From Lingula anatina (Eukaryota; Animalia; Brachiopoda), in the NCBI GenBank assembly GCA_051362555.1, contig CM120643.1, positions 16,620,848 through 16,684,847 on the forward strand: a stretch of 64,000 nt of DNA, written 5' to 3'. This document shows positions 13,282 to 32,500 of this stretch, piece by piece. Numbering within the stretch: the stretch's first letter is position 1; each line of letters begins with the position of its first letter. A program made the position numbers and the translations under genes. Under the pieces are notes generated by a model. It was not told the origin of the DNA and searched no databases. It saw only the letters and a list, made by a program, of their open reading frames with translations.

Positions 13282-16200
13282 TAGTCGAGTCGCCACTCCC
13301 ATAGGCCCAATAGTCGAACCCTGCAATGTTCTTTCCTGTAAACTTTTTTTGCTGAAATGCATTCTTCAGGCCGAGAGAAGCAAAATTAGCTTGGTTGCTA
13401 TTTCCGAGACCTTGAGCATTTTTCAATATGGCCGTCAATTTATGAGGCAAAATAGAAAAACGACCAGAAGTCGCCGGGTAAACTTTATTGACAGTTTTTT
13501 TGAACGTGTATCCTATCAGGAGAGCACAACAGTACTAGTGAATACGCTTAAGCGCGTACCACTTAGCAAAAAACCAAAATGGCCGTCAAAACATAAGGCA
13601 GAAAATGATAAAAGCTGCAGAATCAGTTTGTTTTTTGCATATTTATTTTTATTAAAATCATATCCCCTTTTTATATTTATGTTAATTATAATATTTTGTT
13701 AGACATGACCCGAAACTCTTGGAATAAGCTTATCTGACAGTTCAATAACCCCCCAAGAGTCTGTTTGCTACTTCTCCGGGTCCCATAGTCAAATACTTAA
13801 AATGTTATTCCCTGAATTTTTTAAAATAACTTAACACTTTGGGAGTATAAAAGCCAATTTAATTTGGGCTTTCTTGGCAGTGGCTAGATATGGAACATTG
13901 ATCACTTTTCAAAATTCAAGATGGCCGTCAATAATATAAAAATATATTATAATATCATTATATTATAAATAAATAATTATGTAACATAGCAAAGAGTCGG
14001 GTTTAAAGTGCATGGTATTCCGCATTTCAAATGACCTCTAAAACATGCCCAAAAAAGGTAAAAAAGCAGTTAAATTACGTTTTAAACTGATAATTCGGCG
14101 TGTAATAAAATATATCCAACCCTGTTATTTATTGACAAAGTGTACTTGTAAGGTGCAGTTATACTAAGACTCTATAAAAGAGGATCATTGATAGGACTGA
14201 CCACTTCGTAAGTTCTCTTTTTAATACAGAAAGTTTATCAAGGGCCAACAGGGGGTTCTGCAGGAATTTGGGCACAGGGAGTCCAAAATGTTAATCTGCA
14301 ATCGGGACTCTTATATTTACATGGAGTCCCACCAAGTCCGTTGGTGGGGACGAGGGTGGGAGGGGGGCGAGTGTAATTTAATTTAACTTTTGCTAAAATA
14401 TTAACCTTATTATTTTTTTTCGTTTTTGTTTTTATATTGATCATACCTTAATATTTTAATTTTATATCTTTATCATAACTTTTTTCAGTATGTACATAAA
14501 ATTTAGCTTTAAAACTTCCCATTCTTTTTATTGAGATGGCTCGTGTAAGAATATTTCATCAGTATATAACAGCATTTCTAGTTTTTCTTATTACTGCACT
14601 TTTTCACTTTACATTTTAAAGAGTCAATAAGCAAAACATCTTACAAATCATTTGGTTATACATGTATACTGACAGCCATTAACATCTTTGAGGCCATATT
14701 TTTCAAAATAATTGTTATTTTGAAGCTCTAAACTGGATTATTTTCATACGAATCATTTGTTTAGGACATTGGTATACAGAACCAAAAATCTTAAGTTTCA
14801 TGAATAGTTTCAAAACAAAAATGGCACCAGCCCAACACAAAGTCACAACGGTCAATAGCCGGTACGATCTCCGCTTGCTTCGATGCAGGCGGCGATCTGT
14901 TGGCGCATGCTCGGGCAATAAATGTGGATGGGATGGTGTCGTGTGGAATCCTATTCCAGCCTTGTCGTAGTGCCAAGATATATGTAGTACCAGATGTGTT
15001 CAATCGGATTCATATCCGGAAAATAGACAGGCCGGGGTAGGACATCCACCTTTGGATACACTTGGATCATTTGTGCCGAATGTGAATGGGTCATGTCCTG
15101 TTGGGAAAAGGTGATATCAGTTTTCTGCTGCATGAACGAGGTTATGTGAGGTTGCAGGATCTGATCTATGTAGTGACGAGCAGTTACTGGTATGTTGCCA
15201 TCAGCGACCACCATCGGCTGACCGCCAGCAAGTGTCGACGCACAGTGGGGCTGCCGGGTGCCTCTTGTGCTGTAAGACTGGCATGGCGAAACTGGTCCCG
15301 TAGCTGATGCAACCTGGTGTAGCGATCCTGGTCTGGAGTTGACACTCTCTCGCCTTGGCTGCGGTATATAGCCAACAGAGCCAGGCACGTTGTGGCATTT
15401 AACCAGGTTCCTGATTGTGGGTTGGGAACAGCCCATACATTAAAGCTCAAATCAGACTCCCCTCACACCCAGTGGCCAGAGATGTACGTTGTTCACATGA
15501 TAGACATGGCATGATTTCGTTCACTGAACTAACAACATGGGTGGCCGGGTGGCCTTTTTGGGGCCTTTATAGGCCTCCAAAACCAATCCTCAAAATGTGC
15601 AGATGCCCACTGAGTATTTTTCAGTGTGTATTTGGTCCATTTTTGCAAAAAAAAAAAGCTTACCCATGTGCAATGAACTATGGCAACATGACAACTCATC
15701 ATTATCTTAACTACCCGAGCACTTAGTCATCAATAAATGCACAATGAATAATTACATCTACCCTACAAGTAGAAAAATGCATACATTACTATCTCAAAGC
15801 TTCCATTATCTGTAAGTGTATATTGGCAAAAACAACATTTCGAATACATGATGTCGATGGATAGCCCTCGCATATCCCCGTACTATGTCACGTTGTCCAG
15901 AATAGCATATCGTTATAGGTATATCGTTTTTCACTTTATATATGTATTTATATTTGTTCCAGTTAAAGTCTATTTCAGTTAAAAGCTTTGTAGTTTTACA
16001 GTTGTTTCTTTGCCCTTCTATTATGTTTTGGATGCCATTTTTATTAAAATAACTTGCAAAATGAAATAAATGATCGCGCTTTGCATGGATATAAATATAA
16101 ATATGCAATGATGAACAATGGAGTGAAGCATCGATTTTTTATTTGAATGTATGGCTCTCGCTTTTCACATAACAAATTGACGGCCATCTTGAATTTTGAA

Positions 16201-16813
16201 AAATTGTAAATATCTCGTTATATAAGCTTCTCTAAGTTTTGTAACCCAGATGAAACAATTTCTTTTAAAAAAGCTTGCAAGATATAACATAGCAAGCTTT
16301 GACTATGGGGCTCGTCGGAGTGGCAAATGGACTCTCAGGAGATGGCACCGTCTGCCACCATCTGATTAATGTCAAATAAGCAGTTTCTGAGAGTTTAGGA
16401 TCATGACTAACAAATTATCATAATGGACATAAATAGAAAAAGCGGAAATGTTTAAATAAGACTTAATTTGCAAAAAACGAACTTATTTTGCAGCTGTTTT
16501 TACTTTCTGCCATATGTTTTGACGGCCATTTTGGCTTTTTTGCCATATGTAACGGGCTTAAGTGTATTCACTAGTACTGTTGTGCTCTCCTGATAGGATA
16601 CACGTTCAAAAAAGCTGTCAATAAAGTTTACCCGGCGACTTCTGCTCGTTTTTCTATTTTTTCTCATAAATTGACGGCCATATTGAAAAATGCTCAAGGT
16701 CTCGGAAATAGCAACCAAGCTAATTTTGCTTCTTTCGACCTAAAGAATGCATTTCAGCGAAAAAAGTTTACAGGAAAAAACATTGCAGGGTTAGCGTTCT
16801 GGCTACTCGACTA
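13282..16813. mobile_element. DNA transposon relic with ~650-bp terminal inverted repeats (13282-13932 and 16176-16813)
   Basis: The two arms are reverse complements of each other, which is why ORFs 13349 and 16500 mirror each other. Termini are TAGTCGAGT(C/A)GCCA. TAA flanks both sides (13279-81, 16814-16); alternatively the duplication is TA if the terminus is GTCGAG. Confidence 0.85.
14791..15450 (-). pseudogene. Frameshifted, internally deleted Tc1/mariner (Tc1-type) transposase
   Basis: Fragments in several frames: HTH-like GCSQPTIRNLV..., STPDQDRY.RL, GN..TARHYIDQILQPH, FSQQD (FQQDNA-like), FPDMNPIEHIW (SPDLNPIEHxW) and ALRQGWNRIPHDTI. Confidence 0.88.
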
Positions 16814-26537: not shown

Positions 26538-29500
26538 ATGAATACTTTTACTCTCGTCGTCGGGATGTGTGCATTGGTGCTGGTAGCTGGACACCATAGT
26601 AAGTTGTTTTTCCTTTTGACGAAATTAATCCACTGAGTTTGCTCGGCTTGAACTGGTTTCGTCTTATAATGTGAAGAATATTTGCATGTGTATGATATTT
26701 AGGACTATGACGCACTAATACCGTACTTGACAGTTCTTTCTTACACACTGACCATAGCAAGCGGACGATAGCAAACTACAGTAGATAAAATGCACACTGA
26801 TCTTAAGATTTTTATTTTATTAACTTAAGTTTACGAGAGAAGCGGTGGTTATCAACCGGATATCGACGTTATATTATAAAAATATTTTTATTTTGAACTC
26901 CAAAAGAGTTCAAATGAACTTCAGTGCATAAATGCGTCAAGAAACGCATCCACGCACCCAATAATAAACACCATAACATATCTTTTCAAAGCAAACCTCT
27001 GAACAAAAAAAAATCAAAATGCTCCTAGGAATACTCACCATGTTTAATTATATATTTCAGATAAACCACACGAATGTTTCATCCGCGGAGATCCTCATTA
27101 CCTGCAGTTTGACGGATACGACGCCTTGGATTTTCAAGGTATCTGTCAGTTTTCTCCTACTAATATAAAGAATAACTTCCTAAGGGTAGGCCTACAGTAT
27201 ACTGCGACAAATAACGGCACTCTTATACCTATACTTTTAATGTGACTATTTACATGTAAATTTGGAATCCATTTTTTTTCTCAATGCTACTTTTCTCATT
27301 GGGCGGTATACTTTATTAATCAAGTCTGTACCGGCTCATTTTGAGCGACTGACAATTTGATCGATCTCAGTCTTGAAAACATCACATTTTTTAAACGTCT
27401 TCTTATTTTAAAATCTTTTTTGTTTCATAAGTTTCAAAGTTACCAGCACTGGCATATATTTCCTGTGTTTATTTATCTTAAATTTCACGTGCCTTGTTTG
27501 TTGACTCCAGTCATTGACCCAGTACATTGATCGTGAATTAAGGTGCTGGTACCCTCTACCAGGGCCACGCATTGACTTTTCACAGGGTATTCACAGATAT
27601 GTCTTGAGATAAATAGACGGTCATTTTACTACGTCTGGCTTTTTCTATTTCCCTATAATATCTGCCACTCTGGTAGAGGGTATAGGGTGCTGGTAGGCCT
27701 ATATGTGTAACACATGGGGTGCATTCACAGCCAAAGTTGATCCTCGGACTAACAGATCTACGAATCAAATATGGCCGCCACTTGAAAGCTTATCGGGTTA
27801 TCGTCGCAGGGAATCTATTCAGTGTCTATCAGTGGATTGTGAAACAAGCTTTCAAGTGGGTCGGCCATATTTGATCCGCGGATCTGTTAGTCCCCAGATC
27901 AATTTGTTCGGAATGCTCCCTTAGCCTCCTATCCTAGAGCCTCAACTTGTTTAAAAGAATGCTTTAAATTTTCCACTAAACAGGCAGGTGTACCTACATC
28001 GTGTCGGAAACATCCAATTTTAATATGAATAACCCTCCAACTGACAGCTTCAGAGTGTTGGTCTCCAACAGTCTGTTGCCAAACCATGACGATTTGACCT
28101 TCAGCACGGCGGTGTGGGTAATAGTGCATGGACACACTGTCCGCCTGGACATGGAAAGGGATGTCATTTTGGTAGGTGCAAAAGCAAATATATTTTACAG
28201 AAATTGATAGAATTATATTCAAGGATTCAGCGAGGATTGATGACATCGAGAGACGTTGTGGTCATATTTATACTTTTGTAACAGACCGATAGCTCGGGTA
28301 GATGTTTCTTTATTGTTGTTGTACAAATATCTACAAATATCTCCAAATATCTCCAAATATCTGCAAATATCTGCAAGAGCAATATAAACAAATTAATTTT
28401 AAACAATTACATATACAAAATTTACACTGACGAAAGACAAAGACAGAACAAAGAAATAAAAATATAGCAATGCCAAAAACACCATAAAAAATAAATAGGC
28501 CTATATCAATTTAGAAATGTATGAATTTAAACTATGGATTGGTCCTTTATTAAATATAGTTGAACTTACCTGCAAGCTCACTGGAATACCTATTTCAGTT
28601 ATTCAACCTGCATCTCCGTCCGACTCTCAGGTGGAAATCAAATTTTATGGGGCGCGATCTTTCAACCCTTGACCTCCACGTACACATACGAACATACACG
28701 ATACACACTGAACACAATCATAGCTAACACAACAAACACAGCAAACCTTACATTCTCCCCTCCCCCCGAAATGGGTTCCACACCATTTAAAACAACAACA
28801 ACAACATCAATCTTTGATTTATATTTATTATGCCATATATTTTTATTTACAATATCCAATCTTTGTTAGTCGTCCATTTCGGCCTGTTCCTACTTCTTGT
28901 GGGTCGTACTTCTGAAAGTTCTTCATTCTGTTTTTCTTCATATTCCTGTTTCATTTCATAGATGGGAAGTAACATGTTTCGATGTAGTGTCTTTGATTTT
29001 CCTGCACCATCTTCTCTTTTCACTACATACACTGGGATACCATCATTCGGCTGATCTACTACCACAAACACTTCACTCTGCCATCTATCAGCAATCTTGT
29101 GTTTACCATCGAATGCGACATTCCGAACCAAACCAAGGTGATATAAAACATCAGACGCAGGACCTTTGAGTGACCTTCTGATCGCATGTAATAAAACGGC
29201 ATCGGAATAAATACCGTCACGTCGAAGACCTTTGACTTCAAACAACCACTGCTTAAATGGAATAACAGATAGAATTTAAAAAAGTCTTTCAATTCAGAGT
29301 CTGTAATTTGTTCAGGCAGTCCAGTAATGACAATGTTTCTTGACCTTAATAAAGACGATGGGTAGGCCATTCTCAAAAACGTTTATGCCAGATGCTAGCT
29401 AATATATATACATCACATTCATTCATGAATAATAACAACACAATAGTAAAAAAATGTTTATTTATTCATTGTCAAGTACATATCAATAGCATCAATGCAC

Positions 29501-32500
29501 AGTCATGATTTTACACCATCATATCAATATCATCACAACATATTCATAATCAGTTGAAGACACATTCAAAACTCACACATCGGGAGAAATGTAGGCCCCC
29601 TTTCCCCCAGGCAAGAAAAAAATCCCTAAATAAATATCACTTACCTGAGAGAATCTGCTGGATATATAGGACCATAAGACTCCGTGTCTTTATATAGTCC
29701 TAGTTCACTAATTAGAACCAATCCAATAGTCTGAGATATCGCCAACTATGATCTAAAATTGGTGTTTTTAGAACTGTCTGAAAAAAAAAAAGAAAATTAG
29801 TCGAACTACTGTAAAGAATCAAATTGATAAGAAAAAATAAATAAATTATTTGGTATTCATTACTTTAAAGAACTCCTACTAAGCCTGGTAATCAACAAAC
29901 CAACGTGTTAGATGAAAATAAAAATTCTACCAACGTTCTGTTTGTATTATACCTAGCCTCAAATATACAAATTACTGATGAAAAAAATATGTACAGGTAT
30001 TAAATTAGTTAATCAAAAGTCTTTATATGAACAAATCCAATAGTCAATGTGAATAGTAGTCCAATTTTATGCAACAGTGCAATCAGAAAAGTTCAATATC
30101 AATGTCTGAATATCGGCAAAAAAAATATTAAAGTCCACAGTCAAATGAAATATATACAGCCTAGGCAAAATATGTACACTGCAGTCAATGTAAAGTTCGA
30201 CAATTACGCCAAACCAAGCAACCAAATCCTCGACTGTCAACTCGTAGCTGTCCACGTAGACCTATGCGAATCGGGCACAGTCACAAACGCACAGCATTAG
30301 ATCGACGACAACTCGTCCATGGCCATCACCACATCATCTGAATATACTGATCGGTGTTTTACCGGACAGCAAGAAAAACAATCCCTCTTCACTGGACCGT
30401 GTTCTACGGGGCAGCGGGGATCCTTGGCGGAGAGAAAGAAAGTATCCCTCTTCTCTGGACCGTGTTCTACGGGGCAGCGGGAATCCTTAGCGGAGAGAAA
30501 GAAAGTATCCCTCTTCTCTGGACCGTATTATACAGGGCAGTGGGGACCCTTGGAGGACGGACGAAAATATCTCTCTTAACAGGCCGTGACTCTTGCAGAT
30601 ATCGATTTGTAGTCAAGTCCCTGCTCGGGCGCCAAATGTAACAGACCGATAGCTCGGGTTGATGTTTCTTTATTGTTATTGTACAAATATCTGCAAATAT
30701 CTCCAAATATCTGCAAGATCACTGGAATACCTATTTCAGTTATTCAACCTGCATCTCCTTCCGACTCTCAGGTGGAAATCAAATTTTATGGGGCGCGATC
30801 TTTCAACCCTTGATCTCCACGTACACATACGAACATACACGATACACACTGAACACAATCATAGCTAATACAACAAACACAGCAAACCTTACACTTTTAA
30901 AATAGACAAATAGTAAAGCAATGATATAGGTTGCTTTGAGCCATTGTAGATATCCATACATTTATATTGTACATTTTATCGTTTGGTAAGCGCAGTTTAG
31001 CTTTGTATATATAAAAAAACGAATATAATATAATCATCATTGGTTGTTGATATTTTTCAATGGACAGCCCTTCAAGGGTAGCCTAAGTATAAAATCATTT
31101 TACTTTATTCAGCTCGACGACGAAATCGCAAACATCCCCCATACAGAGAGCAACTTCAATGTGACCCATCATCACCCAGGCTATGTGCGATTGCTGACAA
31201 GTTTTGGGCTGGAGGTCGAACTTCAGAAATTGACCAACGCCAACAGGAAACACAAGGTAAATTGGCTTTTGCTTATAGATGCAGAGTCGGCCCAAGTTTA
31301 TTTTTAAAGTATTAATTCATAAATTCTCATAACGTACGCTCTTTTCTTTTTTATCATTGGTTTGAATGTGTTTTGAATCTGGTTGAAATAACTGCCTGTT
31401 CTTGAAACTCTGCAGGTACAATCAACGAAAATGAGAATACAGCGTGTGGCTTTATGTATTAAGTGAAATATTTCTGTAAAATTCGAAGTGATACACAAGC
31501 CGTCACAGTTGACAGCAAGGCTGAATAAGGGTTCGTCGGTCCATGGGCGAAGTCTGAGACTCTTAAATTTTAGTTTTTAAGCAAAGTTGTTTCTTAAATC
31601 GCAATTACCTCAACCATTCTTTCAATCTAGGTACAAAGTGCATCAAAGATTCATGCTTCCTCTGGCACATGTCACGAGCAAGTATTTTATTGATAAGATA
31701 TTCGTTGGTTCCCTTTTTTTTCAACAGACTAAGGTCAGTGGTCGTAACATCAGAGGTTTGTAACTAACATCTTGCAACCAATGCACCAACTTACGTGACT
31801 AATCAGACTTGCGTGAAAAGTTTAAAAAATGCGAGTTAAAAACCATTGATCCAATGTGGCTTCAGCACAATACATGGTCATCAAGAACTGTTTGCTGTTT
31901 ACTGTTTACTGTTTGCTTTCTTTATATCAATCTGGGCCCGTATCTCGAAAGCATCGCGCATTGCGACCTAGCGCAAGCGTCTCGATTCCATAACTCGCCC
32001 ATACTCGCCCCATATAATACATTGTAGCCTCTGTGTGATATCTCTATTCGCAATACGCGATGCTTTCGAGTAACGGGGCCCTGTTCTGCGTCTCTTCCAG
32101 GTGTGGGTGCGAGTACCCGCTTCATACAATGGCCAACTCCGCGGCATATGCGGGAATATGGACGGAAATGACGACGACGACGATTTCTTAACACCGGAAG
32201 GCACCGTGGAAAACGATGTCACCGTTTTCGGAAACAGTTGGAAACAGAGCTTGGGGCTCGTCGAACCCATTGAGTGAGTTAATTTAATCCTTAATGAAAT
32301 CCTTGGTGAACGAAAAAAAAAATTGTACCGCGCACTGTGGATTGAACGTCAAGCTCTTTCACAGTCATGGCCGTGTGAAAGAAATGGCAGTCCTAGTATA
32401 GGAATGGAAGTCCGGGGTACCACATATGATCAAGACATGTAAGGGTCGTTGGGGTTAGTACATGGGATGAATTTCACCTTTACAAAGTAATGGGGAACGG

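Follow-up and report, generated by a model that had tools for sequence, protein, structure and literature searches.

Introduction

Textbooks give the loss of sense introns as the signature of retrotransposition, and elements that retain an intron within a long terminal repeat (LTR) therefore need a reason for doing so. Penelope-like elements, in which Arkhipova is said to have reported in 2003 that an intron in the terminal repeat survives retrotransposition, are not LTR elements and do not have such tRNA priming and strand transfers. The nearest described system is that of maize LTR retrotransposons (bioRxiv 10.64898/2026.05.08.723830), plant elements in which canonical introns inside LTRs, averaging 1.3 kb and shown by long reads, are retained in genomic copies; in the text searched, the authors claim the first evidence of introns within LTRs, and that text contained neither intron loss from one LTR nor an exon-end repeat. 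Retention in genomic copies is shared with the LTR retrotransposon described here, a ~2.6-kb element at positions 28277-30893 (minus strand) of a 64,000-nt stretch of the brachiopod Lingula anatina (GenBank assembly GCA_051362555.1, contig CM120643.1, positions 16,620,848 to 16,684,847 of the forward strand; hereafter the window), in which the 3′ LTR carries a 199-nt intron-like piece and the 5′ LTR does not. With slightly better than even confidence, the element belongs to a multi-copy family in which this LTR piece is probably a genuine intron; in this copy, the end of the 5′ LTR was probably overwritten with the sequence of another template of the family, one that had been spliced.

Recombination in LTR retrotransposons, in which two co-packaged RNAs give mosaic LTRs breaking at the U3/R border, follows a standard path that ends, in the available excerpts of the two papers compared (PMC6894440, PMC12789967), in two identical LTRs, unlike the discordant pair at this locus. 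Precise loss of a short intron with a common end sequence is shared with microhomology-mediated intron loss (van Schendel and Tijsterman 2013, PMC3698931), which in the excerpts seen concerns host genes and inferred DNA repair, whereas the present case concerns a retroelement, which has its own cDNA and in which the intact sister LTR serves as an internal control. Introns inside LTRs are thus already known from maize; flanking by an exon-end repeat and loss from one LTR were not found in the literature searched (which included few subscription papers), the maize preprint being nearest.

Structure of the LTR pair and the intron-like piece

Coordinates are those of the window, and element features lie on the minus strand, except the target-site duplications and the 63-nt leader units, which are given without strand. 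The element is bounded on both sides by a CTTT target-site duplication (28273-28276 on the left, 30894-30897 on the right). The 3′ LTR (28277-28752, 476 nt) contains the piece, the 5′ LTR (30637-30893, 257 nt) is without it and has two fewer 10-nt units, and both have TG..CA ends; the length difference of 219 nt equals the 199-nt piece (28371-28569) plus the two units. The LTR lengths, the matching duplications and this breakdown of the difference had all been read from the letters in the original prediction and were borne out, as were the consensus donor, the pyrimidine-rich acceptor and the two motifs flanking the piece, CATAAAA (28643-28649, a possible TATA-like box by motif) and AATAAA (28309-28314, likely the poly(A) signal, judging from the motif).

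Read on the minus strand, the piece starts at CAG/GTAAGT and ends in a T-rich tract followed by GCAG, so that a consensus U2-type donor, a pyrimidine tract and a YAG acceptor are all present, making it a candidate intron by sequence. Its GC content is 0.25, against 0.44 and 0.32 in the adjoining LTR parts. CAG/GTAAGT occurs three times in 128 kb (both strands of the window), twice in the sense strand of the element, and GTRAG..YAG at 199-nt spacing occurs at 7 of 127,500 window positions. TTAAT, located by eye ~26 nt before the acceptor in AT-rich sequence, is taken by us to be a branch-point motif and marks a possible branch point. The piece itself contains another AATAAA, at 28551, 18 nt downstream of the donor.

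The 7 nt preceding the donor recur as the last 7 nt of the piece, and the exon end before the donor (28570-28582), which contains a base at 28577 discordant between the LTRs, is alike to the end of the piece at 10 of 13 positions; with family variants (28577, 28578, 28379) the repeat extends up to 11 nt. Seven perfect direct repeats of at least 7 nt at 50-400-nt spacing were found in the 3′ LTR, and only this one permits a GTRAG..AG placement. Across the acceptor junction lie five 10-nt tandem units (28324-28376), of which three are present in the 5′ LTR. These are mirage-like, sharing with the amphioxus 'mirage' minisatellites (PMC3087553) the tandem repetition of an intron/exon border, a unit size starting at 10 nt and instability in number; in the excerpts seen, the amphioxus cases are described in host genes and not in LTRs.

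Family status of the piece

Evidence from public sequencing runs was taken from contigs of three of nine DNA runs (X1, X3 and X6, from three studies) and from four of nine RNA runs (X11, X12, X14 and X17). A contig was counted as bridging with at least 31 nt on each side, and contig depth is a rough guide and not a copy number. The donor was bridged by an X3 contig (28508-28688) at a depth of 602 vs 39 in the flank, and also by X3 and X6 contigs about 10% diverged. X1 contigs ran across the donor (depth 1068) and the acceptor (874) vs 127 in the flank, and an X3 contig across the acceptor at a depth of 462, each with a short side of 23-27 nt, below the 31-nt rule. No joint skipping 199 or 219 nt was found in any of four runs, the single listed joint skipping 152 nt at a depth of 26. 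Since the piece stands at many times the flank depth and no skipping joint was found, the piece is the family norm, and it is the 5′ LTR that lost it. The predicted intron-containing LTR family therefore holds for presence of the piece and direction of the change; splicing itself was not demonstrated by the few RNA reads. Ten of the 12 indels listed, of 19 in total, fell at 28438-28506, inside the piece, as expected of loosely constrained sequence. The exact LTR pattern had no match in metagenome contigs, and no relative was found among viral contigs.

That the 3′ LTR gained the piece by an independent insertion, with 7-8 nt of target duplicated, is hardly credible. The end repeat does resemble such a duplication, and family variants extend it to 11 nt, but in three studies the piece stands within LTR sequence at depths many times that of the flank, as it also does in ~10% diverged contigs; the contigs listed have it inside an LTR, and the window holds no other copy of it. 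Such an insertion, which the original prediction had named in dispersed form as an outcome that would overturn it, is refuted at this locus by the family-wide LTR context, which leaves at most one gain in the family ancestor.

Contigs of X1 cover both flank junctions of the insertion, the flank/LTR border on the left and the connection of the right flank with the LTR. A single difference at one of these junctions agrees with expectation for the 5′ LTR. X1 contigs lack 28657A and 28562G, both alleles of the window, so rare forms are dropped by contigs. The piece-less junction was not seen in any examined run (three DNA, four RNA), whose contigs drop rare forms, and the junction thus rests on the assembly. 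Although this absence is what an assembly or haplotype artefact would give, the covered flank junctions, the loss of rare forms from X1 and the lack of a reason for an assembler to cut at splice sites make an artefactual piece-less 5′ LTR very improbable.

Placement of the junction and differences between the LTRs

Thirty placements of a 199-nt deletion were tried against the 5′ LTR. The GT..AG placement gave one mismatch, at 28577, and a placement 8 nt upstream (28577-28379) gave none. The odd base at 28577 is the acceptor-side base, so the junction alone does not prove a spliced template; where the original prediction had counted one nearby substitution, the single mismatch stands, and it is not incidental.

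The zero-mismatch placement speaks for an account that needs no spliced template, in which the piece was deleted between its end repeats by a jump of reverse transcriptase (RT) or by microhomology-mediated repair after insertion. In one variant, the jump would fall in the completion of the 5′ LTR minus strand; it would pick up the base of the acceptor side, and two 10-nt units could slip at the same time. An end repeat with 7 perfect positions and 10 of 13 alike is available for it, the lineage carries two large internal deletions, the piece-less junction was seen in no run, and junction microhomology predicts intron loss in worms and flies (PMC3698931, in the excerpts seen). Its breakpoint, however, lies one base outside the perfect 7-nt repeat, between two mismatches, unless the odd base arose by mutation or is the allele of a sister copy; of the seven repeats of 7 nt or more in the LTR only one coincides with a GTRAG..AG piece, and deletion by itself leaves unexplained three downstream sites that differ as two family haplotypes. 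Deletion without a spliced template is held to be rather unlikely, though a serious competitor. Of the RT-mediated intron loss originally proposed, the spliced template is favoured, and the junction alone does not separate such loss from end-repeat deletion.

The LTR pair has seven non-repeat differences in ~250 aligned nt, an eighth listed site being repeat register. Both LTRs have 28657A and 28709T, against the family majority, and their upstream parts are thus of one origin. The LTRs differ in six features (28577, the piece, the two units, 28333, 28318 and 28300) over the stretch that starts at 28577, 8 nt ahead of the donor, and runs to the end of the LTR. The 5′ LTR carries the majority state of the family at 28318 and 28333, where the 3′ LTR has a minority state (depth 378 of 1571 in X1); since the X1 flank contig ends at 28303, this minority state is shared by other insertions and is not private to this copy. 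The base at 28577 was also found in other family contigs (28 of 630 in depth in X3, 419 of 1881 in X6) and in one X12 RNA read. We infer that the cluster of differences and the haplotype switch match what a second template over the LTR end would leave; such a spliced template itself was not found.

Repeat-flanked LTR pieces in related Gypsy loci

Related loci in metagenome contigs numbered 408, and the best 80 were compared; 45 of these 80 extend 600 nt or more past integrase. A sense-strand AG/GT..AG piece of 153-479 nt was found within the LTR at seven of the 80 loci (six distinct elements, 65-70% alike in pol), and in those seven, 23-99 nt of the upstream exon end are repeated at the end of the piece; none was found on the antisense strand. 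In a scan for perfect repeats, five loci (L002, L028, L031, L033, L042) had repeats of 23-95 nt with a GT donor after the first copy and an AG ending the second, and all other sense matches and all antisense matches were at most 10 nt. The BLAST version of the scan adds L012 and L013, which are one element. Among 23 non-coding repeat pairs, six end in this way and none on the other strand (P 8e-4), or 5 of 22 when L012/L013 is counted once (P 4e-3); L042, a permuted contig, is counted among the seven loci but lies outside the 23 pairs. The pieces lie 168-356 nt past the polypurine tract (none found for L033) and end ~46-134 nt before the LTR end (partly by eye), and the position in the window is comparable (183 nt after the polypurine tract, 94 nt before the LTR end). 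At the DNA level the window LTR had no match among the 80 loci.

Within this set, L013 (7074-7128) has one more tandem copy of the repeat than L012, and L028 (6700-6803) has a T-rich AG immediately before the acceptor-side repeat, as if an older acceptor had been retained. A G precedes the acceptor-side repeat in L002, L028 and L042 only, in L028 simply as part of that AG, and gives a hint of a cap-derived G at this position.

Strong acceptor-like sites with no detected repeat were observed 89-143 nt before the LTR end in L015, L021, L072 and L049. LTR introns may, to judge from such signals, be commoner in the clade than the count given.

Proposed mechanism and observations against it

In the favoured account, the family would normally copy the piece from the unspliced 3′ RNA end, and a spliced sister cDNA would either convert the 5′ LTR after insertion or supply the 5′ LTR in a rare intermolecular second transfer. 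Discordant LTRs need a rarer event or later conversion, as the standard transfers give identical LTRs. Intermolecular first-strand transfer between spliced and unspliced RNAs, as originally proposed, does not hold in that form, because it produces LTRs that are mosaic but identical (PMC6894440, in the excerpts seen). With first-transfer LTRs identical and the second transfer in retroviruses reportedly intramolecular, spliced cDNA would more easily have acted by later conversion.

A wider model is put forward tentatively, at somewhat less than even confidence: the repeats in the relatives suggest a marine-invertebrate Gypsy clade with built-in retention of an LTR intron by an exon duplicate, of which this locus would be a caught failure, one LTR having been overwritten by the spliced form. 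The exon-end repeat would be a short first exon, and in the capped 5′ leader the intron, being close to the cap, would be spliced out. Its 3′ copy, with a donor that closes a multi-kilobase exon, would often escape splicing, as expected under exon definition. Strong-stop DNA made from the spliced leader would end in first-exon sequence and would pair with the exon duplicate at the intron's end of the unspliced 3′ RNA, by which the intron would be passed on and the repeat refreshed, and landing on the donor-side copy instead would lose the intron. The same event at its first occurrence would create the repeat, which the AG before the repeat of L028 and the extra copy of L013 fit. The repeat of the window family is short (7 nt perfect, 10 of 13), unlike the 23-99 nt of the relatives.

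The exon-end repeat would give LTR introns a concrete, testable reason to persist, with the prediction that transcription begins where the repeat does and that splicing is confined to the 5′ copy. If true, the model would offer reverse transcription a way of building a new acceptor and duplicating an exon. Two LTRs that arose together, one having the intron and the other lacking it, bring their own internal control to the old question of cDNA-mediated versus repair-mediated intron loss, which a single locus does not settle, and LTR-pair dating overstates age where one LTR was rewritten.

Besides the zero-mismatch placement, several observations count against a spliced template or the retention model. 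In the excerpts available, second-strand transfer is intramolecular in retroviruses (PMC12789967). Of the X6 depth of 419 with the 28577 base, 306 is also changed at 28578, unlike the 5′ LTR. Upstream of the cluster the 5′ LTR has private changes at 28618, 28673 and 28728, so plain ageing is at work and accounts for about half of the differences, and the minority haplotype of the 3′ LTR could belong to this copy's own descendants. The relatives are metagenome consensus contigs, in which near-identical repeats may be smoothed, and all eight LTRs compared lack a TATA-like box within 70 nt of where the repeat starts. In RNA, X12 gave 10 reads in the LTR, with a depth of 2-4 at 28580-28780, 0.6 in the donor bin and 0 over 28320-28559, and this zero depth also spans 28320-28370, which is exon under any reading; no spliced joint was listed among these 10 reads, which are too few, and X11, X14 and X17 had next to no reads over the LTR. 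Four X12 reads crossing the border of the primer-binding site (PBS) end at 28300-28319, 23-43 nt into the LTR, and fall short of the 107 nt expected from a start at the exon repeat; these reads do not map the transcription start but lean towards one near the LTR end, counter to the R placement of the original prediction and to the regeneration model at this locus.

On the element as a whole, X11 gave sense reads only at 30025-30636 (depth 1-5), with ~80 nt in total at the LTR end, and X14 and X17 gave next to no reads. The X12 reads at the PBS have one PBS base different from the window, so another family copy is expressed. One candidate X12 read, stopping at the donor and continuing elsewhere, was not counted as spliced, since several mate pairings fit the depth.

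The end of RNA depth near the donor, the AATAAA at 28551 just past it and the retention of the piece in nearly all family depth would also suit a donor that serves mainly as a U1 landing site masking this AATAAA, with the piece rarely or never spliced and its loss accidental. U1 is known to suppress LTR polyadenylation in HIV and foamy virus. A good acceptor nevertheless closes the piece here and in six relatives, and this explanation is improbable.

Anatomy of the element

For the body of the element, 168 of 294 candidate proteins matched, many of them Pol proteins with PF00078, PF17917 and PF00665. An integrase C-terminal remnant (28847-29131, 75% over 57 aa to P0016) is fused in frame with a gag capsid remnant, one of two PNMA-like gag remnants (29132-29370) between which ~160 codons are absent and the frame is broken; these are 86-87% alike to residues 1-36 and 197-243 of P0048 (PF14893), a Lingula anatina record. 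No RT, RNase H or integrase core of its own was found, the 120 related proteins matching the gag and integrase-tail remnants only, and the Pfam search named neither remnant. By these protein matches the element is a non-autonomous derivative of a Ty3/Gypsy LTR retrotransposon, and protein mapping places two large internal deletions in its lineage.

A polypurine tract (28753-28767) precedes the 3′ LTR, and after the 5′ LTR lies the PBS (30617-30634), which we take to be of tRNA-Lys type. A stretch following the PBS (30587-30603) is complementary to the piece-less junction at 16 of 17 positions (score reached by 1 of 2000 shuffles) and to the acceptor side at 13 of 13 (score reached by 0 of 2000). 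Self-priming by the splice junction was considered and rejected, as the complement is placed after the PBS and the PBS is an ordinary tRNA-type site. With Ty1 CYC5/CYC3 (PMC4974528, in the excerpts seen) the element shares a short stretch just past the PBS whose complement lies near the RNA 3′ end; here the partner is the LTR splice junction, the pairing is putative, and the complement is not general, a comparable match being found in 3 of 14 relatives with a PBS.

The leader further contains three 63-nt tandem units (30376-30564) and the second donor-like CAG/GTAAGT of the element (29644-29647), with a strong acceptor-like site 133 nt before it, at 29778. From 29778 to 29394 on the minus strand, the order is thus a strong acceptor-like site, a 133-nt exon-like stretch, a perfect donor and then gag. 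This leader donor is spanned by an X1 contig at a depth of 643, so the intron-like stretch of the leader is likewise retained in multiple copies. The gag/integrase deletion junction (29098-29281) was found on an X1 contig at a depth of 516, where the flank has ~130-150; the form with the deletion has thus itself spread.

Neighbouring features

Host exons encoding von Willebrand D (VWD) domains flank the element on the plus strand (27048-32274; Pfam VWD E 0.13 at 27048 and 1.6e-7 at 32074) and have splice-like borders; on these domain matches, the element is positioned antisense within an intron of a VWD-domain gene. A palindromic high-copy repeat at 27550-27910 reached a contig depth of up to ~97,000 vs 150 in the flank, with RNA in both directions. 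Elsewhere in the window, inverted arms of ~340 nt (13317-13657 and 16451-16792, 84-93% complementary) enclose 2.8 kb, within which broken frames (14951-15462) resemble, by motif, a Tc1/mariner transposase.

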